Source: Rhodocyclales bacterium (GTDB lineage Bacteria > Pseudomonadota > Gammaproteobacteria > Burkholderiales > Rhodocyclaceae). Taken from it: a DNA stretch of 64,000 bases. Shown one piece after another: positions 17,676-45,461 of the stretch. How positions within the stretch are numbered: position 1 is the stretch's first letter; every line of letters starts with the position of its first letter. Below the pieces are notes generated by a model, which was not told the DNA's origin, did not search any database, and saw only the letters and a program-made list of their open reading frames with translations. The position numbers were made by a program, and so were the translations under genes. The DNA is taken from assembly GCA_003105015.1 (NCBI GenBank), contig PQAF01000037.1, positions 4,583 through 68,582 of the forward strand, written 5' to 3'.

Positions 17676-17930
17676 TTTGCAGACCTTGGGCAATGACTGA
17701 AATGCCTTCAAATTTGCGGCCAAGAAATATTTGACTATCTTCATGTTTGCCTGTAAGAATTACGATTAAATTGCTGTTTCTACGCAGGTTGGTCGGCTTT
17801 AAGGGTATGCTTGCAGCCTGCGGCATAACGTTTCAAGCTGTGCGCGAATGTGTTGCGGGTCGGGTGTCCGCATGCGCACGGTTGCTTCTCCAATAAAGAC
17901 AAAATATTCGGCAGGAGAGGACAGCGCAGC

Positions 17931-20513
17931 GTGTCAAAGACTTTCTGGAAAACCGATTGGTTCATCGGCGTTGTCGTGAGCGTGGTCATGCTCTTTGCAG
18001 GCAGCGGCGAATTGCTGCAGAGCCTGGAGCGCAAGGCCTACGACCTTGGCGTCGGTGCAGTCTCTCGAGAACCAAGCAGCAAGATCGCCGTCATCGCAAT
18101 CGACAAGCAGAGTATCGACAACCTCGGCCGTTGGCCCTGGTCGCGCGAAGTGCATGCAAAGATGATCGACGGACTGGCGGCCGCCAAGGCCAAGGTTATC
18201 GCTTCATCCATTTTCTTCTCCGAGCCCCAGATCGATCCCGGGCTCGCCTACATCAACAAGCTGATCGAACTCTACGGCCAGGCCGGTGGTGCGCCGCTGA
18301 CGGGTGCGCCGGAGGCGCTGGCGGCCCAGTTGCCTCCCTTGGGGCAGTTCGGCCCGGTGTTGGCCGAGGCTGAACAGAAGCTCAATAGCGACCGACGCAT
18401 GGGCGAATCGGTCGCCAAGTCGGGCAATGTCGTCCTGCCGATGCTGTTTCGGCTCGGGGAGCCGCGCGGGAGGCCGGACAGGCCCTTGCCGGACTTCATC
18501 AAGAAAAATGCGATTTCCCAAGTCGAAAAAGGCGAGGAGGCGCCGCTTCTTACCTCTGACGTGGAGGCACCGGTCGTCGAGGTGCTCGGCCTCAGCGCTG
18601 CGGCAATCGGCCATCTCAACGTCAATCCCGACGTGGATGGCGGCATACGTACCGAGCCGCTGGTGCTGGCCCATTTCAACGAAATCTACCCCTCCCTTTC
18701 CCTGATGATCGCGGCCAAGAGCCTCAATCTCGGCGTCGCCGACATCAAGGTCAAGCTGGGCGATTCGGTAAGGCTGGGCAATCTGAAGATCGGCACCGAC
18801 CCGGTCATGCAGATGAATACCTTCTTCTACAAGGATCACGAGGGCAAACCTGCCTTCCAGGTGGATTCGTTCTTCGACGTGACCAGCGGCAAGATCCCCC
18901 TGGACAAGTACAAGGACAAGATCGTACTGATCGGACCGACGGCCGCCGGTATCGGCAGCATCTTCGTTACGCCCGTGTCGCCAGCCATGCCGGCAGTGCT
19001 GATGCAGGCGCATACCGTGTCCAGCATCCTCCAAGAGCATTTCTTCGTCGTTCCGACATGGGGCTGGATCGTCGAGCGGGTGGCCTTCCTTCTGGTGGCC
19101 GTCTACCTCATCGCGCTGCTGCCGCGCCTCAAGGCAGGCATGGGGGCGGGCGTGACCGTGGGCCTGTTCGTAGTCCTGGTGGCGGCGCATTTCGTCCTCA
19201 TGACGACGCAATTGATGTGGCTGCAACTCATGGTGCCAGCAACCTTGCTGTTGGTGGGCCATGCCCTGCTGACCACCAAGCGCTTCCTCGTTACCGAACG
19301 CGGCAAGGAGAAATCGGAGGCCGAGTCGGCCGAGTCGAACCGCATGCTGGGCCTGGCCTTCCAGGGCCAGGGCCAGCTCGACATGGCCTTCGACAAATTC
19401 CGCAAGTGCCCGATGGACGAGGCCGTGATGGAAAACCTCTACAACCTGGGACTGGACTTCGAGCGCAAGCGCCAGTTCAACAAGGCCGAGTCGGTTTTTC
19501 GCTACATGGCTGATTTCAACCCGAAGTTTCGCGACCTGGAAACACGGCTGAATCGGGCCAAGGCCATGTCGGAGACTGTGATGCTGGGCGGCGGCGGGCG
19601 ATCGACCGCACAGGGCACCATGATTCTCGAGGGCGGTCAGGTGGAAAAACCCATGCTTGGCCGCTATCAGGTCGAGAAGGAACTCGGCAAGGGCGCCATG
19701 GGCGTGGTGTACCTTGGCCGCGATCCGAAGATCAACCGCGTCGTGGCCATCAAGACCATGGCGTTGTCGCAGGAGTTCGAGGAAGACGAACTCAAGGATG
19801 TGAAGGAGCGCTTTTTCCGGGAGGCTGAAACGGCAGGCCGCCTGAATCACCCGAACATCGTGACCATTTTCGATGCCGGCGAGGAACATGACCTGGCCTA
19901 TATCGCCATGGAATTCCTCAAGGGCAAGGATCTGGTCCCATACACCAAGACCGGCAACCTGATGCCGCTCGCCAAAGTGATGGACATAGTCGCCCGCGTC
20001 GCCGATGCGCTTTCCTACGCCCACCAGAACAGCGTGGTCCATCGTGACATCAAACCGGCCAACATCATGTACGAACCGGAGTCCGATGCGGTCAAAGTGA
20101 CCGATTTCGGCATTGCCCGCATTACCGATTCGTCGAAGACCAAGACGGGCATGGTGTTGGGCACGCCCAGCTACATGTCGCCGGAACAACTGGCCGGCAA
20201 GAAGATCGACGGTCGCTCCGACCTTTTCTCCCTCGGCGTCATGCTCTACCAGATGGCTTGCGGCAAGCTGCCCTTCGAAGGCGATTCGATGGCCCAGTTG
20301 ATGTTCAAGATCGCAAACGAACCGCACCCCCACATCCGCGAGTTCAATCCGCAGGTGCCGGAGTGTCTGGCGGCGATCATCGACCGGGCGCTGGCCAAGG
20401 ACAATGCACAGCGTTACCAGACCGGCGCCGAAATGGCGGCCGACTTGCGTGCCTGCATGGGCTTGAGCACGGGCGGAGGGGCACCTTCGCCGCAGGTTGA
20501 TTTCAATCTTTGA
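17931..20513 (+). CDS. CHASE2-domain membrane Ser/Thr protein kinase (Hanks type)
   Basis: GTG 17931 after AGGAGAGG. N-terminal TM, CHASE2-like region (IAVIAIDKQSIDNLGRWPWSR...KIVLIG), three TMs, TPR-like helices, then LGKGAMGVVY, VAIK, HRDIKPAN, DFG. Confidence 0.93.
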   Translation: MSKTFWKTDWFIGVVVSVVMLFAGSGELLQSLERKAYDLGVGAVSREPSSKIAVIAIDKQSIDNLGRWPWSREVHAKMIDGLAAAKAKVIASSIFFSEPQIDPGLAYINKLIELYGQAGGAPLTGAPEALAAQLPPLGQFGPVLAEAEQKLNSDRRMGESVAKSGNVVLPMLFRLGEPRGRPDRPLPDFIKKNAISQVEKGEEAPLLTSDVEAPVVEVLGLSAAAIGHLNVNPDVDGGIRTEPLVLAHFNEIYPSLSLMIAAKSLNLGVADIKVKLGDSVRLGNLKIGTDPVMQMNTFFYKDHEGKPAFQVDSFFDVTSGKIPLDKYKDKIVLIGPTAAGIGSIFVTPVSPAMPAVLMQAHTVSSILQEHFFVVPTWGWIVERVAFLLVAVYLIALLPRLKAGMGAGVTVGLFVVLVAAHFVLMTTQLMWLQLMVPATLLLVGHALLTTKRFLVTERGKEKSEAESAESNRMLGLAFQGQGQLDMAFDKFRKCPMDEAVMENLYNLGLDFERKRQFNKAESVFRYMADFNPKFRDLETRLNRAKAMSETVMLGGGGRSTAQGTMILEGGQVEKPMLGRYQVEKELGKGAMGVVYLGRDPKINRVVAIKTMALSQEFEEDELKDVKERFFREAETAGRLNHPNIVTIFDAGEEHDLAYIAMEFLKGKDLVPYTKTGNLMPLAKVMDIVARVADALSYAHQNSVVHRDIKPANIMYEPESDAVKVTDFGIARITDSSKTKTGMVLGTPSYMSPEQLAGKKIDGRSDLFSLGVMLYQMACGKLPFEGDSMAQLMFKIANEPHPHIREFNPQVPECLAAIIDRALAKDNAQRYQTGAEMAADLRACMGLSTGGGAPSPQVDFNL

Positions 20514-20596
20514 GAATATATGGACCCCCACGCTCACATTCGATCGCTGCCCCCCGAGGGGGCGCATGCCTTCCTTGGGACGGCCCGGCGGGAGGC

Positions 20597-21421
20597 ATGA
20601 TGGATCTCAGCCAGGTTCTGCAAATAGTCAGCCGCTCGGATGCCGGCATGGTGCGCTCGCACAATGAGGACGCCGTTTTTGCGAATGCCGCCTGCGGCTT
20701 GGCCATCCTGGCCGACGGGATGGGGGGGTATAACGCTGGCGAGGTCGCAAGCGGCATGGCGACAACCCTGCTGGGCAGCGAAATCGAGAAGGCCTTCGCG
20801 AAAACGGAACCCCACCAGCTCGACGCCGCCGGCAAGCTGCATGCCCACAGCGTCCTTGAGGCAGAAATCGCCCGTGCCAACACGGCGATCTACCAGGCGG
20901 CGCAGAGCCAGCCCCAGTATGCCGGCATGGGCACGACCCTGGTGGTCGCCCTGTTCTACGACAACATGATGACGGTCGCGCATATCGGCGATTCCCGGCT
21001 CTATCGCCTGCGCGGGGGCGAATTCCAGGCGATCACGCGCGATCATTCCCTGTTGCAGGAGCAGATAGACAGCGGCATGATTACGCCGGAAGAGGCGCGC
21101 CATTCGCAGAACAAGAACCTGGTTACCCGGGCGTTGGGTGTGGACCCGACGGTCGAGCCGGAGATCCGCGATTACGATACGATGCCGGGAGACCTTTACC
21201 TGTTGTGCTCCGACGGGCTCAATGACATGGTCGAGGACGAGGAGATCGCCCTCACCCTGCAGGCCCTGTCCGCCAACCTCGAACTGGCGGCGACGCAGCT
21301 GATTCAGACGGCGAACGATAGCGGGGGGCGGGACAATGTTTCGGTAGTGCTGGTGCGCATTGTGCGCGAATATCCGGCGGCGCGCGGCTGGTGGGCGCGA
21401 CTGCTGCAATGGTTCAAGTGA
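20597..21421 (+). CDS. PP2C-type Ser/Thr phosphatase (Stp1/IreP family)
   Basis: SDAGMVRSHNED, ADGMGG, HIGDSR, CSDGL, GGRDN; C-terminal amphipathic WWARLLQWFK. Confidence 0.95.
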   Translation: MMDLSQVLQIVSRSDAGMVRSHNEDAVFANAACGLAILADGMGGYNAGEVASGMATTLLGSEIEKAFAKTEPHQLDAAGKLHAHSVLEAEIARANTAIYQAAQSQPQYAGMGTTLVVALFYDNMMTVAHIGDSRLYRLRGGEFQAITRDHSLLQEQIDSGMITPEEARHSQNKNLVTRALGVDPTVEPEIRDYDTMPGDLYLLCSDGLNDMVEDEEIALTLQALSANLELAATQLIQTANDSGGRDNVSVVLVRIVREYPAARGWWARLLQWFK

Positions 21422-21441
21422 ATTGACGAGAAGGACGCAAC

Positions 21442-22200
21442 ATGGCTGCTAAGTTGATCCTAAGCATGGATGGCCTGGTGCTCAAGGAAATTCCGCTCAC
21501 CAAAGAGCGGACGACGATCGGGCGCAAGCCGCACAACGATATCCAGATCGACAATCTGGCCATCAGCGGTGAACATTCGGTGATCGTCACGATCCTCAAC
21601 GATTCGTTTCTCGAGGACTTGAACAGCACCAATGGCACTTACGTGAATGGCCAGCCCATCAAGAAGCATTTTCTGCAGAACAACGACGTCGTCGAATTGG
21701 GCAAATACAAGCTCAAGTACATCAATGAGACTCCGACGCAGACGACGGCTGCGGATTTCGAGAAGACGATGGTGCTGCGGCCCGACCTGATGAAGAAGAC
21801 GGCGGAGCAGACGGCTGCCAAGTCATCCTCGATGAGCGATACGCAGGTCGGCATGAAGGCTATAGATACCCATGCCGGCATGGCGCCGCCTGCCCAAGCG
21901 ACTCCCCCGGCAACGGCGCCCGCTCCGCAGGCGATGCCGACAGGGGCCATCCAGATCCTGACGGGCGCGAATGCCGGGAAGGAACTGGAGTTGACCAAGA
22001 ATCTCACCACCCTGGGTAAACCGGGCGTGCAGGTGGCTGTCATCACCCGCCGGCCGCACGGCTACTTCATCACCCATGTCGAAGGGGCCAACTTCCCGGT
22101 CGTCAATGGCACTGCTCTGGATGCCCATCCGCGCGAGTTGAAGGATCATGACGTCATTGAGCTGGCCGGCATCAAGATGGAGTTCTTCCTCAAAAGCTGA
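21442..22200 (+). CDS. FHA-domain protein (N-terminal canonical FHA, Pro/Ala-rich linker, C-terminal FHA-like domain)
   Basis: IGRKPHNDIQI...ISGEH...DLNSTNGTYVNG; second repeat TTLGKPG...FPVVNG...LKDHDVIELAG. Confidence 0.9.
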   Translation: MAAKLILSMDGLVLKEIPLTKERTTIGRKPHNDIQIDNLAISGEHSVIVTILNDSFLEDLNSTNGTYVNGQPIKKHFLQNNDVVELGKYKLKYINETPTQTTAADFEKTMVLRPDLMKKTAEQTAAKSSSMSDTQVGMKAIDTHAGMAPPAQATPPATAPAPQAMPTGAIQILTGANAGKELELTKNLTTLGKPGVQVAVITRRPHGYFITHVEGANFPVVNGTALDAHPRELKDHDVIELAGIKMEFFLKS

Positions 22201-22313
22201 GCCCGTCGGCACAATCTTGGATGCAGTATCCAGGCTGCATGCAGTTTTGAAACCGCCACCATGAGTTGGGCGTCAGGCTTGCTTAATGCGGGGCAGTTCG
22301 GAAGGGGGCGGTT

Positions 22314-24545
22314 TTGAAGCAGTACATCGTCAGGTACGCACTGGGGTTCGTGGTATTGCTGGTTCTGCTAGGCCACGCGGCGCGTTTCTACGAGCTCGGC
22401 TTCATCAACCGGCTCGACGCCATCATCTACGACACCAAGGTTCGCCTTACCATGCCGAAGGGCATGGATGATCGTGTCGTCATTCTCGATATCGATGAGA
22501 AATCCCTCGGAGAGATCGGTCGATGGCCCTGGGGGCGGGATCGGGTTTCGCAACTCGTCAAGAAACTGTTCGATCAACACGGGGTCACCATTCTCGGCTT
22601 TGACGTCGTCTTCGCCGAGCCGGATGACAGCTCCGGATTGAAGGTGCTTGAAGGGCTGTCCAAGGGGGATCTCAAGGACAGCGCGCACTTCCAGGCAGCG
22701 CTCAAGGAACTGCGACCACAGCTGGATCATGACGGGCGTTTTGCGGAAACTCTCAGGGGACGGCCTGTGATTCTCGGCTATTACCTTTCGGGACGAAGCG
22801 ACGGCGTGTCCAGCGGCGCATTGCCTCCGCCTGTACTGCCCGAAGGCAGCTTCACGGGGCGCAGCATTCCTTTCACCGTCTGGACCAATTACGGCGGCAA
22901 TCTGGCCGAGTTCCAGAAAGCGGCCCTTTCCGGAGGGCACTTCAATCCCCTGGTCGACTTCGATGGCATCTCGCGTCGAGTTCCCCTCCTGGCCGAATTC
23001 AAGGGCGAATACTATGAAGCGCTGTCGCTGGCCATGGTGCGGGCTCTGATCGGCCAGCCGAAGGTGGTGCCCTGGTTTCCTGAAGACCGCTGGTTTTCCA
23101 GCAAGAGCTACCAGGGCATGGAAGCCATCGACCTGCCGACCGCGCGCGGCACGCTGCGCGTCCCGGTGGACGAAAATGTTGCCGCCCTGATCCCCTACCG
23201 CGGCTACCAGGGCAGCTATCGATACTATTCGATTGCCGACATCATGGCGGACCGGATCAAGCCGGGCGAACTCAAAGGCAAGATTGCTCTGATCGGCACG
23301 ACTGCGCCGGGCCTGCTCGACCTGCGCGCGACTCCCGTAGGGGAGGCTTATCCCGGGGTGGAAATTCATGCCAATCTGATCACAGGCATGCTGGACGGAG
23401 CGATCAAGCACAAGCCGTCCTATGTGCTGGGGGCCGAAGTGGTTCTGCTTCTGCTGGCCGGCCTCGTGATGGTGTTGCTGCTGCCGCTGCTATCGCCGCT
23501 ACGGGCAACCCTCGCATCCATCGTGCTGTTGCTGTTCATCCTGACGGTGAACCTCGTCTTCTGGGAGTACGGCAACCTGGTGCTGCCGCTCGCTGCCGCC
23601 GTGCTGCTGGTACTGACTTTGTACGCGCTCAACATGTCGTACGGCTATTTCGTCGAGTCGCGGACGAAGCGGCAGTTCACCGAGCTGTTCGGGCAGTACG
23701 TGCCGCCGGAACTGGTGGAGGAAATGAGCCGCAACCCCGAGTCCTATAGCATGGAAGGCCGCAAGGCCGAGCTGACCGTGCTGTTCTCGGACATACGTGG
23801 CTTTACAACGATATCCGAGGGGCTTGGGCCGGACGAACTGACCCACCTGATGAACGAGTACCTGTCGGCCATGACCGAAGTGGTGCGCAGGAACCGGGGG
23901 ACCCTGGACAAATATATCGGGGACGCCATCATGGCCTTCTGGGGCGCTCCGGTGAGCGATGCACAGCATGCCCGCCATGCCGTCGTCACGGCGATGCAAA
24001 TGCAGGCCGCCCTGCCCGCCGTCAACAAGACGTTTGCTGCAAAGGGTTGGCCCGAAATCAAGATTGGCGTCGGCGTCAACACGGGAGACATGACCGTGGG
24101 CGACATGGGGTCGGCCGTGCGCAAGGCTTATACTGTCATGGGCGATGCGGTAAACCTCGGTTCGCGGCTTGAGGGCATTACCAAGCAGTACGGGGTCGGC
24201 ATCCTGGTGGGCGAGACTGCGCGCAAGGCCATCAAGGATATCGTCTTCCGGGAAGTGGACCGGGTCCAGGTGAAAGGCAAGGAAGAGCCTGTTGCCATCT
24301 ATGAGCCGATCGGCCTCGAAGGCGAGGTAGACAAGGCAACACAGGAAGAGCTCAAGCTGTGGAACCAGGCCTTGCGCCACTACCGCGCCCAGGAATGGGA
24401 TCAGGCGGAGGTGGCGCTCTTGAACTTGTCGCGACTGGCGCCCGGACGGGCGCTGTACGGCAAGTATATGGAACGGATTGCCCACCTGCGCAGGGAACCG
24501 CCCGAGCCGGGATGGAAAGGCGTGTGGAAGTTCGAGACCAAGTAA
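22314..24545 (+). CDS. CHASE2-domain class III adenylate cyclase
   Basis: CHASE2 (ILDIDEKSLGEIGRWPW), three TMs, cyclase motifs LFSDIRGFT, LDKYIGDAIMAFW, YTVMGDAVNLGSRLE (Lys/Thr specificity pair typical of ATP-using class IIIb enzymes). Confidence 0.92.
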   Translation: MKQYIVRYALGFVVLLVLLGHAARFYELGFINRLDAIIYDTKVRLTMPKGMDDRVVILDIDEKSLGEIGRWPWGRDRVSQLVKKLFDQHGVTILGFDVVFAEPDDSSGLKVLEGLSKGDLKDSAHFQAALKELRPQLDHDGRFAETLRGRPVILGYYLSGRSDGVSSGALPPPVLPEGSFTGRSIPFTVWTNYGGNLAEFQKAALSGGHFNPLVDFDGISRRVPLLAEFKGEYYEALSLAMVRALIGQPKVVPWFPEDRWFSSKSYQGMEAIDLPTARGTLRVPVDENVAALIPYRGYQGSYRYYSIADIMADRIKPGELKGKIALIGTTAPGLLDLRATPVGEAYPGVEIHANLITGMLDGAIKHKPSYVLGAEVVLLLLAGLVMVLLLPLLSPLRATLASIVLLLFILTVNLVFWEYGNLVLPLAAAVLLVLTLYALNMSYGYFVESRTKRQFTELFGQYVPPELVEEMSRNPESYSMEGRKAELTVLFSDIRGFTTISEGLGPDELTHLMNEYLSAMTEVVRRNRGTLDKYIGDAIMAFWGAPVSDAQHARHAVVTAMQMQAALPAVNKTFAAKGWPEIKIGVGVNTGDMTVGDMGSAVRKAYTVMGDAVNLGSRLEGITKQYGVGILVGETARKAIKDIVFREVDRVQVKGKEEPVAIYEPIGLEGEVDKATQEELKLWNQALRHYRAQEWDQAEVALLNLSRLAPGRALYGKYMERIAHLRREPPEPGWKGVWKFETK

Positions 24546-24561
24546 CATAAGAGATAAAGAA

Positions 24562-25329
24562 ATGAAGGTCAGAGTTCTCGGCTGCAGCGGCGGGATTGGC
24601 GGACGTCATCTGCGCACGACCTCGCTGCTGGTCGACCACGACATCCTGATTGACGCAGGAACCGGTGTGGGGGATCTGTCGCTGGCCGAACTGGCCTTGA
24701 TCGACCATGTCTTCCTCACCCATTCGCATCTCGACCATGTTGCCTGTCTGCCGTTCATGGTCGACACCGTGGGCGACATGCGCAACAAGCCGCTGACGGT
24801 ACATGCCACCCAGGCCACGCTGGAAATCATCCAGGCGCACATCTTCAACTGGGCCATCTGGCCCGACTTCTCGGAGATTCCCAACCGCGAAAAGCCGTTC
24901 ATGCGCTACGCTGAGTTGAAGACCGGCAAGACGGTGAAGGTGGACGGGCGCGAGATTACCCCGCTTCCGGCCAATCACACCGTACCCGCCGTGGGTTATC
25001 GCATCGATTCCGGCGAGGGCAGTCTGGTGTTCAGCGGCGATACGACGGTGTGCGATGAGTTGTGGAAAGTCGTGAACAAGATCCGCAACCTGCGCTACCT
25101 CATCATCGAAACCGCCTTTTCCAATCGCGAGCGGCAGCTTGCCGTCGCCTCGAAGCATCTATGCCCCGATATGCTGCGTGAGGAGCTGCTCAAGCTGCAG
25201 CGCGAGGCGGATATCTACATCACTCACCTCAAGCCCGGGCAGATCGAGCTGACCATGCAGGAAATCGAAGAGTTCATAGGGGAATACAGGCCGCGCATGT
25301 TGCAGAACAACCAGGTGTTTGAGCTGTAA
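24562..25329 (+). CDS. 3',5'-cyclic-nucleotide phosphodiesterase, metallo-beta-lactamase fold
   Basis: LGCSGGIG, IDAGTG, LTHSHLDHV (HxHxDH), NHTVP, FSGDT; sits directly after the cyclase. Confidence 0.85.
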   Translation: MKVRVLGCSGGIGGRHLRTTSLLVDHDILIDAGTGVGDLSLAELALIDHVFLTHSHLDHVACLPFMVDTVGDMRNKPLTVHATQATLEIIQAHIFNWAIWPDFSEIPNREKPFMRYAELKTGKTVKVDGREITPLPANHTVPAVGYRIDSGEGSLVFSGDTTVCDELWKVVNKIRNLRYLIIETAFSNRERQLAVASKHLCPDMLREELLKLQREADIYITHLKPGQIELTMQEIEEFIGEYRPRMLQNNQVFEL

Positions 25330-25339
25330 GGGTTCGCGA

Positions 25340-26407
25340 ATGGGCATGCAATCCATTTCCACGGAAATATTGAGGCGGCTCGAGCCGCTGGGGGCTCTGT
25401 CGCCGGACAGCCTTCGCGAGATATCCCGCATGTGCTATGCAGAAAAAATCAGCCGGAATCTCGACCCGTTTCGGCTGCAGGGCATGCAGGGCCAGGCTGT
25501 CTATCTCGTCAAGGGCGAATTGAAGATTGATTACCCGGATTCCAGCTCCGAAATCCTGGTCGGCGGGACAGAGGCCGCCGTTCGCCCGCTGGACAAACGG
25601 AAACCCGCATTTACGGGGGCCAAGGCGATTACGGACGTCGAGTTGATCCGAATCGACGAGGAACTGCTCGATATCATGCTGACATGGGACCAGCTGGCCG
25701 CGCCGCAGGCCACAGCCGGCGCGAAGAAAACCCCGGATGCGGCGGATCGTACGGATTGGCGCACGATGTCCGGCATGTTTGCGGCAGAGAACCTGACGCA
25801 CGGCATATTTGCCAGCCTGCCGCCGGCCAACATCGAGGCGCTGTTCGCACGCTTCCACCGCATCAAGGTGGCGCGCAACGAAGTGGTCATCAGAGAAGGG
25901 GAGGATGGGGACTTCTATTACGTCATTGAAAGCGGGCGTTGCACGGTGTTCCGCCAGATCGGGGGCGCCAGCGTCGGACTGGCCGAGTTGAAGGCCGGCG
26001 ATGCTTTCGGAGAGGAAGCGTTGGTGGCAAACACCAAGCGAAACGCGACGGTTGCAATGAAAACCGATGGTGTCCTGTTGAGGCTGGCGAAGGCGGATTT
26101 CATCGAGTTGCTGAAAGAACCCCTGATGCATCGCATTTCGCGTCCGGAAGCGGACAAGAAAGCGGCTGCCGGAGCCGTCTGGCTGGACGTCCGCTTTGCT
26201 GCCGAATACAACACCGACAAGCTGCCGGGGGCGATCAACATTCCGCTCAACGAGATACGCAACCTGTTCGGCTCCCTCGATCGCCAGAAGGAGTATATTG
26301 CCTACTGTCAGAGTGGGCGGCGCAGTTCGGCGGCGGCATTTCTGCTCTCCCAGCGTGGCTATAAGACTTATCTGCTCGAAGGCGGGCTTCGCGGCAGTGC
26401 GACATAA
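25340..26407 (+). CDS. Tandem cNMP-binding domains fused to a C-terminal rhodanese domain
   Basis: Degenerate first cNMP domain; second has REGEDGDFYYVIESG...FGEEALVANTKRNATV; rhodanese LDVR...LPGAINIP...YCQSGRRS...LEGG. Confidence 0.85.
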   Translation: MGMQSISTEILRRLEPLGALSPDSLREISRMCYAEKISRNLDPFRLQGMQGQAVYLVKGELKIDYPDSSSEILVGGTEAAVRPLDKRKPAFTGAKAITDVELIRIDEELLDIMLTWDQLAAPQATAGAKKTPDAADRTDWRTMSGMFAAENLTHGIFASLPPANIEALFARFHRIKVARNEVVIREGEDGDFYYVIESGRCTVFRQIGGASVGLAELKAGDAFGEEALVANTKRNATVAMKTDGVLLRLAKADFIELLKEPLMHRISRPEADKKAAAGAVWLDVRFAAEYNTDKLPGAINIPLNEIRNLFGSLDRQKEYIAYCQSGRRSSAAAFLLSQRGYKTYLLEGGLRGSAT

Positions 26408-26443
26408 GGCACGCATCCCAATGGCTCAGAAGGGAAATCTGGT

Positions 26444-28819
26444 ATGAGTGCGGTGCTTGGTTCGACTCAGGATGCTGGCAGCGGAGGCGATGTCGCCAGC
26501 CGTCTGTCTTTCTTCAAGAACCTCCAGACAGTCACCAACAAGATCCATGCGACGGCCAATATCGACGAGATCATGCTCGAGTTGTCGCAGGACATCTGTA
26601 CGCTGTTCAACGCGGATCGGCTGACCATCTACTCGATCAGCGAGGACAAGTCCTCCATCGTCTCCAAGGTCAAGACCGGCCTCAATTCCTTCAAGGACCT
26701 GCGGCTGCCGATTGCCGACCAGAGCATCGCAGGGTTTGTCGCGCTATCGAAGAAGCTGGCAAATATCAGCGACGTCTACGACGAGGCGGAACTGAAATCG
26801 CACACGCCCAGCCTGCGCTTCCTGCAGGAGGTGGATAAGCGTACGGGCTACCGCACCAAGCAGATGCTGGTGGCCCCGATCACCGAGGCGCAAAGCGGCG
26901 AGTTGCTTGGGGTGGTCCAGCTCATCAACAACAAGGCCGGGGCGCCCTTCTCCCAAGTGGCGGAGGAGGGGGTAAAAGGACTGTGCGAAACACTGGCCAT
27001 TGCATTCACCCAGCGTCAGAAGCCGGCGCATGTCGTCAAATCGAAATATGACCATCTGGTCGCCGATGCCGTGCTGTCGGCAGCCGAATTTGATCTTGCG
27101 ACGCGTTCCGCGCGGCGCAAGGGCCTCGACATCGAAGAGGTGCTGCAGCACGAATTCCAGGTCAAGCCGGCGGCGATCGGTTCGGCCCTGTCGAAGTTCT
27201 TCGGCGTGCCTTACGAGCCGTACAAGGGCGACCGCATCAAGCCGATGGACCTGTTGAGAAACCTCAAACGGGAATACGTCGAAGAGAATCAGTGGCTGCC
27301 GATCGAGGAAACGAAGGAAGGCGTCGTGATCCTGACGATGGATCCCGAGCAGGTGAAGAGCTCGCGCATCGTCAACAACGTCTTTCCGAAGAGCAAGCTG
27401 GTCTTTCGCGTCACCACCATCCCGGAATTCAAGCAGACGATCGACCAGTTCTATGGCGCGGCCGCCGATTACGGCTCCGTCGGCGATCTTCTTTCCGGCA
27501 TGGACGAAGGGGAGGAGGGCGGCGGCGAGCTGACCGGCGAGGATATCTCGGCGGCGGCGGACAACGAACTCGTCAAGCTCGTCAACAAGATCATCATCGA
27601 TGCCTATAGCCAGGGTGCATCGGATATTCACATCGAGCCGCGGCCTGGCAAGGACAAGACCATCATCCGCTTCCGCAAGGACGGCTCGCTGGCGAACTAT
27701 ATCGAGATTCCGGCAAGCTACCGCAATGCCCTCGCAGCGCGCATCAAGATCATGTGCGATCTGGACATATCCGAGCGTCGCAAGCCGCAGGACGGCAAGA
27801 TCAAGTTCAAGAAATTCGGTCCGCTCGATATCGAACTGCGCGTGGCGACGATTCCATCGGCCGGCGGCGTCGAGGATGTGGTCATGCGCATCCTCGCCGC
27901 CGGGGAACCGATTCCGCTCGAGAAGCTCGGCATCCTGCCGCACAACCTGGAGCGGTTGAAGAACGTGGTCGAGAAGCCTTATGGACTGTTCTTCGTTTGC
28001 GGTCCGACCGGTTCGGGAAAGACAACCACGCTGCACTCCGTTCTGAAGCACCTGAATACGCCTGACACGAAGATCTGGACGGCAGAGGACCCGGTCGAGA
28101 TCACGCAGAAAGGCCTGCGGCAGGTCCAGATCAACCGCAAGGCCGGACTGGATTTCGCCACCATCATGCGCGCCTTCCTGCGTGCCGATCCGGACATCAT
28201 CATGGTCGGCGAGATGCGCGACAAGGAGACCGTCTCCATCGGCATCGAGGCGTCGCTGACCGGCCACCTGGTATTCGCCACGCTGCACACCAACAGTGCG
28301 CCCGAATCGATCACCCGCCTGCTCGACATGGGCATGGATCCCTTCAATTTTGCCGACGCTCTGCTCGGCATCCTGGCGCAGCGCCTGGGCAAGCGCTTGT
28401 GCGGCGAATGCAAGGAAGCCTACACCGCGTCGGGGGAGGAGATGAAGAGCCTGCTCACCGAGTACTGCGAGGAACTGCTCAACACCAGCACCTTCAAGAA
28501 GGATGCCAAGGCAGGCTACGAGACGGTGTACAAGGAGTGGGCGAAGAATTACGCCGACGACAAGGGGCAGTTCAAGCTCTACAAACCGAAGGGCTGCGAG
28601 AAATGCAACAACACGGGCTACAAGGGGCGTGTCGGTTTGCATGAATTGATGGTGGGAACGGATAACGCCAAGAAGCTGATCCAGGAGCATGCCCGGGTTG
28701 CAGAACTGGTCGCCTGCGCCCTGGAGGACGGCATGCGCACCCTGAAGCAGGATGGTATCGAGAAGGTGCTGCAGGGCATCACCGACATGAAGCAGGTTCG
28801 GGCGGTTTGCATCAAGTAA
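26444..28819 (+). CDS. GAF-fused PilB/GspE-family secretion ATPase
   Basis: N-terminal GAF (DKRTGYRTKQMLVAPI...GVVQLINNK), T2SSE_N-like region, ASDIHIEP, Walker A GPTGSGKT, TAEDPVE, DPDIIMVGEMRD, LHTN, and CxxC...CxxC (CGEC, CEKC). Confidence 0.92.
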   Translation: MSAVLGSTQDAGSGGDVASRLSFFKNLQTVTNKIHATANIDEIMLELSQDICTLFNADRLTIYSISEDKSSIVSKVKTGLNSFKDLRLPIADQSIAGFVALSKKLANISDVYDEAELKSHTPSLRFLQEVDKRTGYRTKQMLVAPITEAQSGELLGVVQLINNKAGAPFSQVAEEGVKGLCETLAIAFTQRQKPAHVVKSKYDHLVADAVLSAAEFDLATRSARRKGLDIEEVLQHEFQVKPAAIGSALSKFFGVPYEPYKGDRIKPMDLLRNLKREYVEENQWLPIEETKEGVVILTMDPEQVKSSRIVNNVFPKSKLVFRVTTIPEFKQTIDQFYGAAADYGSVGDLLSGMDEGEEGGGELTGEDISAAADNELVKLVNKIIIDAYSQGASDIHIEPRPGKDKTIIRFRKDGSLANYIEIPASYRNALAARIKIMCDLDISERRKPQDGKIKFKKFGPLDIELRVATIPSAGGVEDVVMRILAAGEPIPLEKLGILPHNLERLKNVVEKPYGLFFVCGPTGSGKTTTLHSVLKHLNTPDTKIWTAEDPVEITQKGLRQVQINRKAGLDFATIMRAFLRADPDIIMVGEMRDKETVSIGIEASLTGHLVFATLHTNSAPESITRLLDMGMDPFNFADALLGILAQRLGKRLCGECKEAYTASGEEMKSLLTEYCEELLNTSTFKKDAKAGYETVYKEWAKNYADDKGQFKLYKPKGCEKCNNTGYKGRVGLHELMVGTDNAKKLIQEHARVAELVACALEDGMRTLKQDGIEKVLQGITDMKQVRAVCIK

Positions 28820-28824
28820 GCGTC

Positions 28825-37931: not shown

Positions 37932-39998
37932 ATGAACCTGCTGAAGGTCGTCAAGCGCGCCTGGCAGACCCTACCGCTTTCTGACCATCTTCGGTGGCGG
38001 ATCACGGCGTTGCTGCTGGATCCTATTCTGCCGTTGATCCGTGGCAGCGTCGTCCATTCGGCCTATCTCCGTGAGAAGGAGTGGCACGACCAGCGCATCC
38101 GCCCATTCCACGGTGACGCCTTTCCGACGCTTCCTGCGCAGGAGAAACCCGACGTCTTCTTCTGGGGCGTCATTGATTGGCGCTACCGCATACAACGGCC
38201 CCAGCATCTGGCGCGCGGGCTGTCAGGACGGGGGTTCCGTGTCTTCTACGTCTCGACCTCGTTTGTGAATGACCGGAAGCCCGGCTTCGAGTTGGAAAGC
38301 ATGGATGCGGAAGGCCGGCTTTACAACGTCAGGCTGCACCTGAAGGGCCGCCCTCGCATTTATTCGGCCCCGCCGGGAAAGGATGATTTCCAACGATTGA
38401 AGGCGAGCGTCGCGGCCCTGCTCGAGTGGACGGAAAGCCGGGAGATCGTTGCTCTGGTGCAGCATCCGTATTGGGCGCCACTTGCCGAGGTGCTGCCCGA
38501 CAGCCGGCTCATATACGACTGCCTGGACCACCACGAGGGCTTTGAGAATACCGGCGAGGGCATCGGTGCGCTGGAGCGCAGGTTGCTGGAGAGGGCGGAT
38601 GCGGTGGTCGTGACCTCGCAGTGGCTGCACGATTTAGCCGCCTTGCGCAACCGGAACGTCGCGGTCATTAGGAATGCCGCTGAGTTCGAACGTTTTGCGG
38701 CGCCTCCCTCCATGGTGTTCAGGGACCCTGCTGGCAGGCGTGTCATCGGTTACTTTGGCGCTATCGCAGAGTGGCTCGATGTCGACTTGCTGCGAGAGAT
38801 CGCTGGCGCCTTCCCGGAATGTCTTCTGCTTCTCGTCGGTGCCGACGAGTGTGGGGCTGGACAGCGGCTGAGCGATCTGCGCAATGTCCTGCTAACCGGT
38901 GAAGTTCAGTACGCTGACTTGCCGCATTTTCTGCACGGCATGGACGTGTGTCTGCTGCCTTTCCGCGTCACGCCGCTGACGCAGGCGACCAACCCGGTGA
39001 AAATCTACGAATACCTGTCTGCAGGCAAGCCGGTTGTGGCAGTCGACCTGCCGGAAATGGCCCAGTTCGGTTGCGTTATCGATGTCGCACAGACGCCGGA
39101 GGGATTCATCGAAAAGTTGCGTTGCCTGCTGGCGATCCCGCAGGAGAACGAGTCAGCCATCAGTGCCCGGAAGGAATTCGCCCGACAGCATACGTGGCAT
39201 CGCCGCGTGGATGACCTGGTCGGTGTCATTGATCGCCTGCCAAAGCCGTCGGCTAGCATCGTTGTTCTGACCTACAACAATCTCGAACTGACGCGGGCCT
39301 GCCTCGACAGCCTGGCGCGCTTTACCGATCCGCAGCTCTGCGAAACCATAGTGGTGGATAACGCTTCGACCGACGGCACGCAGGACTTCCTGCAGCGGTG
39401 GGCTGCAGGTGGGCACGGCAGGAGGCTGATCCTCAATGAGAACAATCGCGGATTTGCGGCCGGGAACAACCAGGGTCTGGCAGTCGCACAGGGGGACTAC
39501 CTTGTTCTGCTAAACAACGATACTGAGGTGACGCAGGGTTGGCTGACCACCCTGATGAATCATCTGCGCAGTAATTCAGACATCGGCATTGTCGGGCCGG
39601 TGACCGACAATATCGGCAACGAGGCGCGGATTGCACTGCGCTACACGAGCGTGGAGGAAATGCAAGGGGAGGCGCGCAGCTATACGCTTGCCCATATGGG
39701 AGAGCGGCTGCCGATCCGGACTCTGGCGTTTTTCTGCGTCATGATTCCGCGTGAGGTCTACCAGCGGGTGGGTCCGCTGGACGAGTCGTATGGCCTCGGC
39801 TTTTTCGAGGACGACGACTATTGCCGGCGCATCGAGCGGGCTGGCTGGCGCATTGCCTGTGCCGAAGACGTTTTTGTCCGGCACCATCTCTCGGCTTCCT
39901 TCGGCAAGCTCGGCAAGGGCAGGCGCGATTTGCTGGAGCGCAACCGGAAGATTTACGAGGCAAAATGGGGCCCATGGATTCCGCACAGGTACCGGTGA
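37932..39998 (+). CDS. Two-domain glycosyltransferase (GT-B/GT4-like plus GT2)
   Basis: N-terminal QRPQHLA, YDCLDHH, GYFGAI, NPVKIYEYL; C-terminal VLTYN, VDNASTDG, NRGFAAGNN, LLNND, FFEDDDY. Confidence 0.88.
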   Translation: MNLLKVVKRAWQTLPLSDHLRWRITALLLDPILPLIRGSVVHSAYLREKEWHDQRIRPFHGDAFPTLPAQEKPDVFFWGVIDWRYRIQRPQHLARGLSGRGFRVFYVSTSFVNDRKPGFELESMDAEGRLYNVRLHLKGRPRIYSAPPGKDDFQRLKASVAALLEWTESREIVALVQHPYWAPLAEVLPDSRLIYDCLDHHEGFENTGEGIGALERRLLERADAVVVTSQWLHDLAALRNRNVAVIRNAAEFERFAAPPSMVFRDPAGRRVIGYFGAIAEWLDVDLLREIAGAFPECLLLLVGADECGAGQRLSDLRNVLLTGEVQYADLPHFLHGMDVCLLPFRVTPLTQATNPVKIYEYLSAGKPVVAVDLPEMAQFGCVIDVAQTPEGFIEKLRCLLAIPQENESAISARKEFARQHTWHRRVDDLVGVIDRLPKPSASIVVLTYNNLELTRACLDSLARFTDPQLCETIVVDNASTDGTQDFLQRWAAGGHGRRLILNENNRGFAAGNNQGLAVAQGDYLVLLNNDTEVTQGWLTTLMNHLRSNSDIGIVGPVTDNIGNEARIALRYTSVEEMQGEARSYTLAHMGERLPIRTLAFFCVMIPREVYQRVGPLDESYGLGFFEDDDYCRRIERAGWRIACAEDVFVRHHLSASFGKLGKGRRDLLERNRKIYEAKWGPWIPHRYR

Positions 39999-40005
39999 TG
40001 AGGCG

Positions 40006-40851
40006 ATGAGCGCGATCGGCAGGCGACTGGTTTCGGTGCTGAAGGAACTGCGCAATGCCGCAACAGCCAGGCTCGAAGTGCTTGCCGGTACCGGCGAGGG
40101 CCAGACGATCTTTTGCTGCAATGTGTGCGGCCGGATGGCGAAGGTGGACAAGACCAGATTGACGCGCGAAGAACCGAGCTGCAGGTGCGGGTCTTCAGTC
40201 AGGCTGCGCGCCATCGTCCATCTCTTGACCATGGGGCTTTTCGGCAGGAGCCTGGCGATCCGGGACATACCTGAGCGTCACGATATCGTAGGCATCGACA
40301 TGAGCGGCGCTGCCATCTATGCCGGCCGGCTGGCTCGGCGACTTGGCTATACCAACACCTATCTGCATCGGGAGCCGCGGCTCGACATCACGGCTCCTGG
40401 AGCGGAATGGTTGTCGCGGTGCGACTTCGTCATCTCCTCCGATGTGTTCGAGCATGTCGCACCACCGGTTTCCGTGGCCTTCGACAACGTTCTGCGGTTG
40501 TTGAAGCCGGGCGGGCTTTTAGTGCTGACTGTTCCATGGGCGAAGGACGGCGAGACGATCGAGCATTTTCTTGAACTTGCCGACTATCGGCTCGAACGCC
40601 GGGGAGCGGACAGGGTTCTCGTGGGCCGCGCCCCAGACGGCAGGATTCGGGAGTACGGAAACCTCATCTTCCACGGCGGCGAGGGGGAAACCCTCGAGAT
40701 GCGCGTCTTCTCGGAATCAGGCATATTGGGTGAACTCGCGCGCGCCGGCTTCGGTGACATACGTATCCATGCCGAGCCTTGTGAGGAATTCGGCATCCTA
40801 TGGAAGCAGCCATGGTCATTGCCCATCACAGCGAGGCGTCCGCCTGCATGA
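40006..40851 (+). CDS. SAM-dependent methyltransferase with N-terminal Cys cluster
   Basis: CNVCG...EPSCRCGSSVR, SSDVFEHV, LLKPGGLLVLTVP, FHGG. Confidence 0.75.
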   Translation: MSAIGRRLVSVLKELRNAATARLEVLAGTGEGQTIFCCNVCGRMAKVDKTRLTREEPSCRCGSSVRLRAIVHLLTMGLFGRSLAIRDIPERHDIVGIDMSGAAIYAGRLARRLGYTNTYLHREPRLDITAPGAEWLSRCDFVISSDVFEHVAPPVSVAFDNVLRLLKPGGLLVLTVPWAKDGETIEHFLELADYRLERRGADRVLVGRAPDGRIREYGNLIFHGGEGETLEMRVFSESGILGELARAGFGDIRIHAEPCEEFGILWKQPWSLPITARRPPA

Positions 40852-41957
40852 CGCACAGATTCCTTTGCGTGGTCGGCACCCGGCCCGAGGCGATCAAGAT
40901 GGCTCCGGTCATACGGGCATTGAGGCGGAAGCCAGGACTCGGAGTGCGCGTGCTTGCCACGGCACAGCATAGGGAAATGCTTGATGAAACCCTCGCGCAG
41001 TTCGGGATCATCCCCGACATCGACCTCAACATCATGCGGCCGGACCAGACACTCGCCGATCTGACCGCCCGACTTCTCGCCGGCATCGACGCGGCGCTCG
41101 CTTCCGAGAGGCCGGATGTCGTCGTTGCCCAGGGGGATACCACCACGGTCTTCGCCTCAGCCCTTGCGAGCTTCTACCGCCGCATCCCTTTCGCGCACGT
41201 CGAGGCCGGTCTGCGTACGGGCGATTTCTCGAACCCCTTTCCCGAGGAGATGAACCGCAATTTCGCGGGGCGGCTCGCGGCGCTCCACTTCGCCCCGACT
41301 GCAGGTGCACGCGCCAACCTGCTTCGGGAAGGTATTCCCGATCACATGATCCATGTGACCGGAAACACAGTCATCGACGCGGTCCAATGGATGGCGACAA
41401 ACAATCCGGATCATGGCCTTCCGATCAACGGGGCGGCGCAGGTGATTCTGCTGACCTGCCATCGCCGCGAGAATTTCGGGAATCCGCTTCGGCAAATCCT
41501 GTCCGGTGTCAGGCGCTTGGCCGCAATGCATCCAGAGATCGCGATCGTTTATCCGGTCCATCCGAATCCCGGCGTAGCAGGTCCGGCTCGTCAATTACTT
41601 ACGGGAATATCCAACATTGTGCTGACGGAGCCATTGAGCTATGCCAAGCTTGTCGGCGTACTGAAGACATGCCATTTTGTGCTGACCGATTCAGGTGGGT
41701 TGCAGGAAGAGGCGCCGGCATTGGGAAAACCTGTACTCGTTCTACGCAACGAGACAGAACGTCCGGAAGCTGTCGAGGCCGGCATAGCCATCCTGGTCGG
41801 CCATGAAGAAGAAACCGTTGTACGGGAAGCTAGCCGATTGTTGAACGACAAGTGTCACTATCGGGCAATGGCGCGCGCGGTATCACCTTATGGCGATGGA
41901 CATGCAGGAGAGCGGATTGCGGAAGCGCTCACTAGCTGGTTAAGGCAAATAAAATAG
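40848..41957 (+). CDS. wecB: UDP-N-acetylglucosamine 2-epimerase (non-hydrolysing)
   Basis: GTRPEAIKMAP, TAQHREML, QGDTTT, HVEAGLR, PEEMNR, HRREN, TDSGGLQEEAP, NETERPE, YGDG. Confidence 0.95.
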   Translation: MTHRFLCVVGTRPEAIKMAPVIRALRRKPGLGVRVLATAQHREMLDETLAQFGIIPDIDLNIMRPDQTLADLTARLLAGIDAALASERPDVVVAQGDTTTVFASALASFYRRIPFAHVEAGLRTGDFSNPFPEEMNRNFAGRLAALHFAPTAGARANLLREGIPDHMIHVTGNTVIDAVQWMATNNPDHGLPINGAAQVILLTCHRRENFGNPLRQILSGVRRLAAMHPEIAIVYPVHPNPGVAGPARQLLTGISNIVLTEPLSYAKLVGVLKTCHFVLTDSGGLQEEAPALGKPVLVLRNETERPEAVEAGIAILVGHEEETVVREASRLLNDKCHYRAMARAVSPYGDGHAGERIAEALTSWLRQIK

Positions 41958-41987
41958 CTGCTGCCGACGAGAAGACTGCATCGGCGC

Positions 41988-42230
41988 TCAACGAGGGAAG
42001 GCGCGATCTCTCCATGCGAGGATCGGACGCTCAAAATGCCGCTCCACCAAGGCCGCCAACAATGTACTGCCGAACATGAAGGCGCTCCAGCGTGTAATTG
42101 CGCCATGCACGTCGCCAGGCTGCGTGTCGCCGGAATAATGCCGGATGAGATGGAATATCGGCATATGCGTCAAATACTAGGCATAGGGTAACCGGGCCAA
42201 GACGAGTGTGGGATTTAGCCGATCCAGCAT
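41988..42230 (-). pseudogene. 3' remnant of an acyltransferase-3 (O-acetyltransferase) gene
   Basis: Reads LARLPYA*YLTHMPIFH...LLAALVERHFERPILAWRDR, resembling the family C-terminus (SYxLYLxHxP...ExP); in-frame TAG at 42177-42179; N-terminal part missing. Confidence 0.65.
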
Positions 42231-42253
42231 CGATACTCATGCGCCAGCCACCT

Positions 42254-43567
42254 CTAATCAGAACGCAATCCCGCAAAACGACTCAGAACTTTATGTATAG
42301 CCCGCAATGGATAGGTCATCCGCCAAGCCCAAGAGGATTGGATTCCTGACAACTGTTTCTCGAGTTCGGCAACCCGAAGCTCCAGCAACCTAATTTTTTC
42401 CTGCATGTGACTCTCCAGGTGGCGACGCAGTATTTCTTCTTCCGACGGCTTTTCGAGCCGCCAACGGATGTAATCCGGCGTAAAGGCAAGTTCCCACGGA
42501 ACAAGATAATTCAGAAGGAAGAAGGCATAGGCGGACGCGTTGACCCTACCGGTTTCCGGTGTGATGCAATATCCGAACGGGCTGTCTCCATGAACAATGG
42601 CCCCGCGGCCGAGCAATAGTGCTTCAACCGCGATGCCGGAGTTGATGGTAATGATTTGCTTGCAGCGCATCAGGAAATCGAGCGACGATGGGGAGCGATC
42701 CACTTCCATCCCGGCAGGCAGGCCGCGAAGCAAGAAGTGGGAACCGGGATGCGTTCGCACGAGTACCGGTGACCTGATACTTTGCTGGGAAAGCAGGCGG
42801 CGCGCATGGTTGATGAGAGATATCGAGGAATGGTTATTGGCGTAGCAAACAATATTGCTGTCGTCTTCAATTTGGAGGCCCAACCCAAGATCGACGACCG
42901 GCTGACCGTTATCTTTCGGAAGTTGGACCATGAACAATCGACGCAAGGTCTCGACGGAATGCGAGGCGAGCAGTTCCCGGATCGTGCCGTTCTCGGTCGA
43001 TGTGAATCTGCTTTCCGACTCCGTGGTTCCGTTTACCCCCGAAAAGTCAAAGTAGGCGGTTTGCAGAAAGAATGGCGGACGAAGTGGTCCCAACTCAAAA
43101 TGTATAAGCGGCAATCCCCTGTCATGACATAGGTTCTTTAATGTGGCGCAATTGACGCAGGTAATCACTGCCTCTGGCTGGCCATGACTTGACCCGAACG
43201 TATCGAGAGCACTGGCCATGGCCGATCGCAACCCAGGATCGTTCTCTTGGCAGTAATGCCTTAGTGCGGCCAGAGGATTGGCGCCATGCCGGGCTTCGAA
43301 TGCTTGCCATACCTCCCTTGGAATAACCTGTAGTGACAGTTTTCCGAGCCCTGTCTGATCAGGCAAATTGTATCGGTACAGATTCGCCGTCGCTTCGCAC
43401 GCCTCAAACCGACCTTCGGCCAGCAGTTCGGATGGGTCGCGATAGTATTCGTCGCCAGAGATAAATCCAGCATGCGCGCCGAATTCGCTGACAAACTTAT
43501 AGAACCACCATAGATAGGGAGAGTGATTTCCCCTGAAATTCAGTGCTGGCAAGAAGACGGCAAACAT
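42254..43567 (-). CDS. Stand-alone GT99 (WbbB-type retaining beta-Kdo transferase) with short C-terminal coiled coil
   Basis: MFAVFLP..FRG..SPYLW.FYK, HFELGPLR, TAYFDFSGVNG, LQIEDDSN, RTHPGS, TINS, YLVP all match the WbbB N-terminal domain as I recall it; tail LELRVAELEKQLSGIQSSWAWRMTYPLR. Confidence 0.78.
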   Translation of the reverse strand: MFAVFLPALNFRGNHSPYLWWFYKFVSEFGAHAGFISGDEYYRDPSELLAEGRFEACEATANLYRYNLPDQTGLGKLSLQVIPREVWQAFEARHGANPLAALRHYCQENDPGLRSAMASALDTFGSSHGQPEAVITCVNCATLKNLCHDRGLPLIHFELGPLRPPFFLQTAYFDFSGVNGTTESESRFTSTENGTIRELLASHSVETLRRLFMVQLPKDNGQPVVDLGLGLQIEDDSNIVCYANNHSSISLINHARRLLSQQSIRSPVLVRTHPGSHFLLRGLPAGMEVDRSPSSLDFLMRCKQIITINSGIAVEALLLGRGAIVHGDSPFGYCITPETGRVNASAYAFFLLNYLVPWELAFTPDYIRWRLEKPSEEEILRRHLESHMQEKIRLLELRVAELEKQLSGIQSSWAWRMTYPLRAIHKVLSRFAGLRSD

Positions 43568-43592
43568 TCGATGCTTGTAGGGCTGATTGTGC

Positions 43593-45454: not shown

Positions 45455-45461
45455 GGAAATT

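Follow-up and report, generated by a model that had tools for sequence, protein, structure and literature searches.

A 2024 review of PilB regulation (PMC11656802) places pilus extension under cyclic di-GMP (c-di-GMP), acting through MshEN domains or through FimX/PilZ, gives cyclic AMP (cAMP) a part only in transcription through Vfr, and does not mention GAF domains. The MshEN receptor for c-di-GMP is built from two tandem 24-residue motifs, RLGxx(L/V/I)(L/V/I)xxG(L/V/I)(L/V/I)xxxxLxxxLxxQ (Wang et al. 2016, PMC5013675), and Supplementary Table 4 of the same paper already lists a GAF-MshEN-T2SSE architecture, with Geobacter lovleyi Glov_1971 as its example. GAF domains activated by cAMP are known in bacteria with other outputs, GGDEF in Lcd1 and HD-GYP in Tlr0485, the latter being a cAMP-activated GAF-HD-GYP protein according to the account of Enomoto 2020 given in PMC8846402. 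Here we describe GAF-PilB, an ATPase with an N-terminal GAF domain that is encoded in a 64,000-nucleotide stretch of a Rhodocyclales bacterium (GCA_003105015.1, contig PQAF01000037.1, positions 4,583 to 68,582 of the forward strand), hereafter the window. On the sequence evidence set out below, we give slightly more than an even chance to the reading that GAF-PilB, a motor descended from PilB whose regulatory head has been replaced, is a type IVa pilus (T4aP) extension ATPase gated by cAMP. Apart from the architecture listing of Wang et al. 2016, no study of any GAF-PilB turned up in full-text searches, and the literature searched held no precedent for a GAF of the type that binds cyclic nucleoside monophosphates (cNMPs) on a secretion or pilus ATPase.

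The gene (26444..28819, + strand, as are all features of the protein) opens with ATG and encodes 791 residues, in which Pfam identified GAF at residues 40-187 (E 2.4e-8), MshEN at 253-340 (PF05157, E 2.1e-8) and T2SSE at 372-785 (PF00437, E 2.8e-118). In the window these correspond to a GAF domain of the cNMP-binding phosphodiesterase (PDE)/CyaB subtype at 26558..27007 (residues ~39-188), a degenerate four-helix MshEN_N region at 27038..27208 (residues ~199-255), the C-terminal alpha/beta subdomain of MshEN at 27200..27463, and the N2 domain with the ATPase core at 27557..28798. The protein is a member of the PilB/GspE/PilT superfamily by its N2/C-terminal ATPase fold and by a complete set of catalytic motifs, namely Walker A (GPTGSGKTT), the Asp box (EDPVE), Walker B and the His box, with DPDIIMVGEMRD and TGHLVFATLHTN, conserved among 83 sequences of the family. 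The tetracysteine of PilB/GspE-type ATPases was also present and conserved in the family (C653-x2-C656 and C718-x2-C721, a zinc-finger region at 28400..28606), with 61 residues between the cysteine pairs; the genome's canonical PilB has 33 at this place. This clade-specific insertion of ~28 residues is seen as well in the length of the PF00437 match, 1230-1251 nt in the GAF-PilB clade versus 1137-1170 nt in other ATPases.

For the GAF head, a search of the PDB with residues 1-205 returned as the top solved relative the cAMP-bound tandem GAF of Anabaena CyaB2 (1YKD, E 2e-28), followed by PDE10A GAF-B, PDE6C, PDE2A GAF-B and the GAF of PmGH (4MCW), an HD-GYP enzyme. An AlphaFold2 model of residues 1-375, built on an alignment of 55 family sequences, had a mean predicted local distance difference test score (pLDDT) of 79.4, with values mostly of 80-93 in the GAF part, and its top Foldseek matches were 4MCW, 1YKD, PDE5A, PDE10A and cAMP-bound Lcd1, with the GAFs of PtsP lower down. 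Across those 55 sequences, which are 57-92% identical to the query, T61, S94, A96, G97, F126, D131, T134, G135, Y136, R137 and Q159 were invariant (55/55). Several of these lie in two segments, adqSIAGfVA (SIAG at 94-97) and VDKRTGYRT (130-138), that align with the ligand-contact segments of PDE2A, PDE10A and CyaB2. The contact residues of PDE2A GAF-B in the two segments we take to be I458/A459, V484, D485, T488 and T492. That numbering reportedly goes back to Martinez et al. 2002. By overall similarity and by its contact segments the domain is thus of the cNMP-binding PDE/CyaB type. Its closest matches in sequence and structure are the cNMP GAFs (CyaB2, PDE2A/5/6/10, Lcd1 and Tlr0485), with which it shares SIAG and D..TGYRT; unlike the CyaB2/PDE-type proteins, GAF-PilB carries a single GAF and not a tandem, and its output is a secretion/pilus ATPase. 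A PDE-type GAF had been named in the original prediction, made by reading the window, and the database statistics and intact pocket motifs bear this out; the strings that it quoted, D131-K-R-T-G-Y-R-T138, GVVQLINNK (156-164), F169, E174-E175 and KYDHLVADAVLS (201-212), were all found in the translation.

The region that follows the GAF was also said to lack a recognisable c-di-GMP motif and its RLGxxL start. This held throughout the family. Using the relaxed 24-residue regular expression with which Wang et al. 2016 made their genome counts, we found no match in any of the 83 family members (0/83), whereas two paralogs from the same genome, serving as positive controls, did match; none of the 83 sequences examined thus retains the canonical c-di-GMP motif, and binding of c-di-GMP through a canonical MshEN motif was ruled out. 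The corresponding segments, SKYDHLVADAVLS... and GLDIEEVLQHEF..., have lost their Arg-Leu-Gly starts, turn glycines and closing Gln. The paralogs in question are GspE/MshE-like ATPases with a platform gene adjacent and recognisable MshEN c-di-GMP motifs (L002, C34:92327-94736; L004, C5:31921-34300), so that the cell still has other fibre or secretion motors under the control of c-di-GMP. In the AlphaFold2 model the MshEN fold is kept despite the loss of the motifs, with four short helices at 203-253 (pLDDT 83-95) and a high-confidence alpha/beta subdomain at 256-340 (pLDDT ~90-96 over the subdomain). GAF-PilB resembles MshE and c-di-GMP-binding PilB in its MshEN fold and in the proposed control by a second messenger through an N-terminal head, and differs from them in the destruction of both 24-residue motifs and in its predicted messenger, cAMP, which a domain distinct from MshEN would sense. 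That the MshEN-like region instead binds c-di-GMP, or cyclic GMP-AMP, at a non-canonical site, so that two messengers are integrated, we consider highly improbable. The confidently predicted four-helix fold would suit it, as would the continued conservation of the region (K201, L205, A219, A223 and R224 invariant, mean column identity 0.71) and the c-di-GMP-degrading HD-GYP protein encoded next door, but 83/83 members have other residues in place of the two RLG glycines, the glycines of the turns and the last Gln, all of which are needed for binding (Wang et al. 2016, PMC5013675).

The genes around GAF-PilB point to cAMP. Eight same-strand genes at 17850-30480 follow a promoter-like site (17731-17760), and no strong + strand terminator was found between them. 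Their order is CHASE2 Ser/Thr kinase, PP2C phosphatase and FHA protein (together 17850..22200, Pfam), CHASE2 cyclase (22314..24545), metallo-beta-lactamase (MBL)-fold phosphodiesterase (24478..25329), a protein with a cNMP-binding domain and a rhodanese domain (25319..26407), GAF-PilB, and GAF-HD-GYP (28807..30480), so that the cyclase, which had been counted as four genes upstream of the ATPase, is in fact the third. The cyclase is of class III and is predicted to be an adenylate cyclase of class IIIb, with Lys in LDKYIGDA and Thr in AYTVMGDAVN, the same pair as in Pseudomonas aeruginosa CyaB (3R5G) and Spirulina CyaC (1WC0). A guanylate or pyrimidine cyclase was disfavoured, since the Lys/Thr pair fits class IIIb adenylate cyclases and Cya2 (2W01), a guanylate cyclase, carries Glu in place of the Lys. 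The MBL-fold protein (Pfam Lactamase_B_2, PDEase_II) has the class II phosphodiesterase signature THSHLDH, aligned to that of yeast PDE1 (4OJV), its best solved relative. The cNMP-binding-rhodanese protein has the phosphate-binding cassette FGEEAL...RNATV. In GAF-HD-GYP the HD and HHE..DGKGYP motifs are intact, and its GAF, for which PmGH 4MCW was the top PDB match, is related to that of the ATPase (BLAST E 5e-13).

This neighbourhood is widely conserved. Close relatives of GAF-PilB occur in at least 595 species of the genome collection, and the best 80 of these relatives are all from Betaproteobacteria, at 69-91% identity. Among 83 related loci, GAF-HD-GYP was linked in 77, the MBL phosphodiesterase in 70, the cyclase in 66, PP2C in 55, FHA in 53, the kinase in 47 and the cNMP-rhodanese protein in 37. 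Oxalobacteraceae have the genes for cyclase, HD-GYP and MBL on the opposite strand and no kinase/PP2C/FHA set, and the minimal arrangement, in genome G019, has only the MBL phosphodiesterase adjoining GAF-PilB, directly upstream. The linkage of cyclase, MBL and GAF-HD-GYP survives such rearrangement, and thus the core consists of the cyclase/phosphodiesterase pair and the two GAF proteins; the association of cyclase and ATPase claimed from the window was strengthened accordingly. At least one class III cyclase was present in each of the 10 carrier genomes tested. More distant versions of GAF-PilB outside Betaproteobacteria, at ~30-35% identity, include some with extra N-terminal domains, and a relative from Nitrospirota (Ca. 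Nitrobium) is ~34% identical.

Several features of this gene set deserve mention in their own right. The two CHASE2 receptors of the operon (17850-20513 and 22314-24545) differ in output, one being a Ser/Thr kinase and the other the predicted adenylate cyclase. Kinase, PP2C and FHA together form a frequent accessory set, present in ~60% of related loci. A long helical insert splits the HD-GYP domain of GAF-HD-GYP into two Pfam stretches with the catalytic motifs intact, which recalls the class of GAF-HD-GYP proteins with insertions reported for LIC_11189 of Leptospira (PMC12943098). Orthologs of the MBL protein in Azospira (L009/L010, 8138-8911) and Sterolibacterium (L011, 8123-8890) gave a weak match to the anti-Pycsar protein Apyc1 in addition to class II phosphodiesterase; the window protein gave no Apyc1 match in the Pfam scan. 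We did not adopt a link to defence, because the class II signature and the signalling context explain the match.

With respect to the motor itself, GAF-PilB reached none of the NCBIfam equivalog cut-offs, scoring 482.3 bits in two stretches on the PilB model (TIGR02538, cut-off 675.65), 453 on GspE (TIGR02533, cut-off 630) and 408 on TfpB (NF053534, cut-off 850). An IQ-TREE phylogeny of 45 ATPase domains from 11 genomes, in which the GspE clade was anchored by genes beside gspF/gspG, placed it with the T4aP extension ATPases, in a clade of TfpB, canonical PilB and a group joining GAF-PilB to a 787-797-residue type (support 95/94), apart from the GspE and MshE-like clades; GAF-PilB itself formed a clade with 100/100 support. 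By these sequence criteria the motor groups with the ATPases of type IVa pili and with neither GspE nor MshE. A GspE of the type II secretion system (T2SS) and a mannose-sensitive haemagglutinin-type motor were ruled out by the scores and the tree. Identity with TfpB was likewise ruled out, at 408 bits and with the TfpB of this genome being another gene (920 bits). The sister clade consists of PilB-like ATPases of 787-797 residues (L092, G025:C1, 3426-5813; and G084:C1:188085-189311) that have the zinc-finger insertion in common with GAF-PilB. Their N-terminal region of ~250 residues before MshEN had no Pfam match, and the G025 gene is flanked by hslU and lysA and precedes pilMNO by four genes.

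Compared with canonical PilB (TIGR02538; the pilB of the same genome and Myxococcus xanthus PilB, 3JC8), GAF-PilB has the same ATPase fold, catalytic motifs and MshEN-fold N1 domain and falls in a sister or near-sister clade. It differs in its extra GAF, its ~17% identity in N1, the zinc-finger insertion of ~28 residues, the missing c-di-GMP motif, its score of 482 bits against a cut-off of 676, and its position away from pilC. A natural chimera combines the two types. In G042 the PilB encoded directly upstream of pilC (L093, G042:C16, 3171-5096, minus strand, 610-641 residues) has no GAF, and its residues 1-160 are ~50% identical to canonical PilB and ~17% to GAF-PilB, whereas residues 161-610, zinc-finger insertion included, are 74% identical to the window protein and ~45% to canonical PilB; it nests within the GAF-PilB clade with 100/100 support. 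As judged from these sequences, the chimera indicates that a motor core of the GAF-PilB clade can work in the pilBCD slot and that N-terminal heads are exchangeable.

The source genome has eight genes of the T2SSE family and three platform proteins. Canonical PilB lies in pilB-pilC-pilD on C34 with its platform adjacent and scores 842 bits on TIGR02538, and the MshE/GspE-like L002 and L004 (C34 and C5) likewise have adjacent platforms; the PilT/PilU pair of retraction type (C30) and the PilT-like L007 (C40) have none. Orphans with no platform are GAF-PilB in the window and L003 (C28:19152-21023, 598-623 residues), a TfpB equivalog at 920 bits against the cut-off of 850, and there are therefore three PilB-clade ATPases (PilB, TfpB and GAF-PilB) for one PilC. 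TfpB has been shown experimentally to be a second T4aP extension motor of Acinetobacter baylyi, without a platform of its own (PMC11656802). GAF-PilB resembles it as an orphan PilB paralog of the same superclade (95/94) but belongs to a different clade, and TfpB lacks a GAF, nor is any second-messenger input known for it. TfpB orthologs were also present in G025, G216, G034 and G048. As the original prediction stated, pilC, pilD and pilMNOPQ are missing from the window; they are present elsewhere in the genome, and the second, canonical pilB that it proposed to look for is the one in the pilBCD operon on C34.

The term accessory paralog, which had been suggested from the window, is fair for this genome with its pilBCD and does not hold generally. 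In a sample of 301 genomes drawn evenly from the order, searched with the N-terminal 375 residues and with canonical PilB counted at about cut-off level, the GAF-PilB module was found in 150 genomes (147 strongly) and in 63 of 143 genera, and canonical PilB in 161 genomes. Both were present in 60 genomes, GAF-PilB alone in 87, canonical PilB alone in 101 and neither in 53, so that 87/147 carriers are without canonical PilB. All 13 good genomes with GAF-PilB and no canonical PilB had pilM, pilT/pilU and a PilC-type platform, which in 12 of them stood without an adjacent ATPase. The four genomes of genus g25 (G019, G212, G170 and G293; two single-contig, one 2-contig and one 4-contig) have as ATPases of PilB/GspE size one GspE-clade gene beside gspF (gspG was read in G019 only), GAF-PilB, and no others. 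In G019, the sole g25 genome read at this place, the operon is pilC-pilD-coaE and an unrelated gene occupies the usual place of pilB. With no other PilB-clade ATPase present, GAF-PilB is by elimination the candidate sole pilus extension motor in g25, and its gene distribution makes it the apparent main or sole motor of extension in many relatives. A merely accessory role as a general statement is contradicted by the phyletic pattern and the g25 genomes.

These data also bear on whether GAF-PilB extends a pilus at all. It might serve a T2SS, another, unknown fibre, or nucleotide-dependent signalling of the kind proposed for M. xanthus PilB in exopolysaccharide control, a role we judge decidedly unlikely. 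No platform, secretin or alignment gene stands beside GAF-PilB in any of the 83 loci, its score is under the PilB equivalog cut-off, the zinc-finger insertion is specific to its clade, and in 60 sampled genomes it occurs alongside canonical PilB, all of which a role other than extension would accommodate. Such a role fits poorly with the placement in the PilB/TfpB clade rather than with GspE or MshE-like motors, with the orphan PilC-type platform, pilM and pilT/U of g25 in the absence of another PilB-clade ATPase, and with the G042 chimera, which puts a motor core of this clade directly upstream of pilC; TfpB, moreover, is an example of an orphan paralog at work on the same pilus.

Downstream of the operon lies pilA (30661..31122, + strand; Pfam Pilin and N_methyl), a type IVa major pilin gene and, by a genome-wide search, the sole PF00114 pilin of the genome. 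An exact sigma-54 promoter consensus, TGGCACGACTATTGC (30575..30589, + strand), one of two such matches in the window, lies 72 nt upstream of its ATG at 30661, and a strong intrinsic terminator follows it (31142..31168, + strand; 10-bp stem, 8 of its pairs GC, and a T tract). With its own sigma-54 promoter and terminator, pilA is not co-transcribed with the ATPase. Beyond it, at 31198-47120, lie the gene of a 645-residue membrane protein with tetratricopeptide repeats and an extended series of glycosyltransferase, methyltransferase, GT99, sulfotransferase and Wzt genes, which suggests pilin glycosylation and/or an ABC-exported surface glycan.

Several of our observations weigh against a cAMP-gated extension motor. 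At the positions of the PDE2A specificity pair, F438/D439, GAF-PilB has K77/T78, matching neither PDE2A nor CyaB2, and the choice between cAMP and cyclic GMP (cGMP) is therefore unreadable from the GAF. The NKFDE motif is partial: of the NKFDE-like motif claimed earlier, N162, F169 and E174/175 are kept and the D position is A173, and the motif is in any case not diagnostic of ligand binding. The source genome already has PilB and TfpB, so GAF-PilB could be redundant or specialised there. Of the points in favour, the anti-correlation of GAF-PilB and canonical PilB in the sampled genomes (odds ratio 0.36, Fisher p 2e-5) is uncorrected for phylogeny, and the sister relation of canonical PilB to the GAF-PilB group has only 92/57 support in the tree. 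Finally, pilA forms a sigma-54 unit of its own and only 27/83 loci have a pilin within 10 kb, and the adjacency of pilA is therefore weak evidence. The first two of these points would also be expected if GAF-PilB were a T4aP extension motor whose GAF binds some other small molecule (cGMP, another nucleotide or a metabolite) or only dimerises or acts as a scaffold, since the specificity positions are unlike those of all solved cNMP binders. GAF domains have many ligands, and the GAFs of PtsP are among the structural matches, with a weak PtsP match in NCBIfam. Against this, the nearest sequence relatives are all cNMP binders (to E 2e-28), the ribose-phosphate contact segments are invariant, and tight linkage of the gene to the predicted adenylate cyclase and to a phosphodiesterase of class II type extends across families; on balance another ligand, or none, seems unlikely to us.

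Under the cAMP-gated reading, cAMP would be made by the CHASE2 adenylate cyclase of the operon, removed by the class-II-type phosphodiesterase, and bound in the GAF pocket of the ATPase. The long helices of the GAF and the degenerate bundle of MshEN would pass the binding signal on and so alter assembly or activity of the hexameric motor, which would engage PilC/PilM to polymerise the major pilin, while the adjacent GAF-HD-GYP would read the same cAMP signal and lower c-di-GMP. In the source genome, PilB, TfpB and GAF-PilB would work side by side on the single PilC. The proposal that a pilus motor was switched from c-di-GMP to cNMP control thus stands for its first elements, the lost MshEN motif and the cNMP-type GAF; cAMP as the ligand, the gating, the direction of regulation and the interaction with PilC/PilM are what we infer from the sequences. 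Relative to the published architecture listing, the new elements are the placement in the T4aP clade, the spread in the order, the anti-correlation with PilB, the candidate sole motor of g25, the G042 chimera, and the linkage to cyclase, phosphodiesterase and GAF-HD-GYP.

The wider picture we hold tentatively, at somewhat less than an even chance. In it, cAMP would directly gate T4aP extension post-translationally; a cNMP-type GAF would have replaced the c-di-GMP or PilZ-FimX-type head in what would be the principal or only motor of many Betaproteobacteria, served by a dedicated cyclase and phosphodiesterase and accompanied by a co-regulated c-di-GMP phosphodiesterase; and heads would have been swapped by recombination. 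That GAF-PilB and canonical PilB tend to stand in for one another across genomes, and that a chimera occupies a pilBCD operon, suggests that PilB motors can exchange their regulatory heads as modules and makes the function testable by simple genetics. If true, direct reading of cAMP by the motor would add a new point of control to pilus extension, relevant to a very large environmental group that includes half of the sampled order, among them Rhodocyclaceae, Gallionellaceae/Sideroxydans, Nitrosomonadales and Oxalobacteraceae. The GAF-HD-GYP paired with the ATPase suggests, in addition, that a connection leading from cAMP to c-di-GMP is built in where cells decide between a motile and a sessile life.

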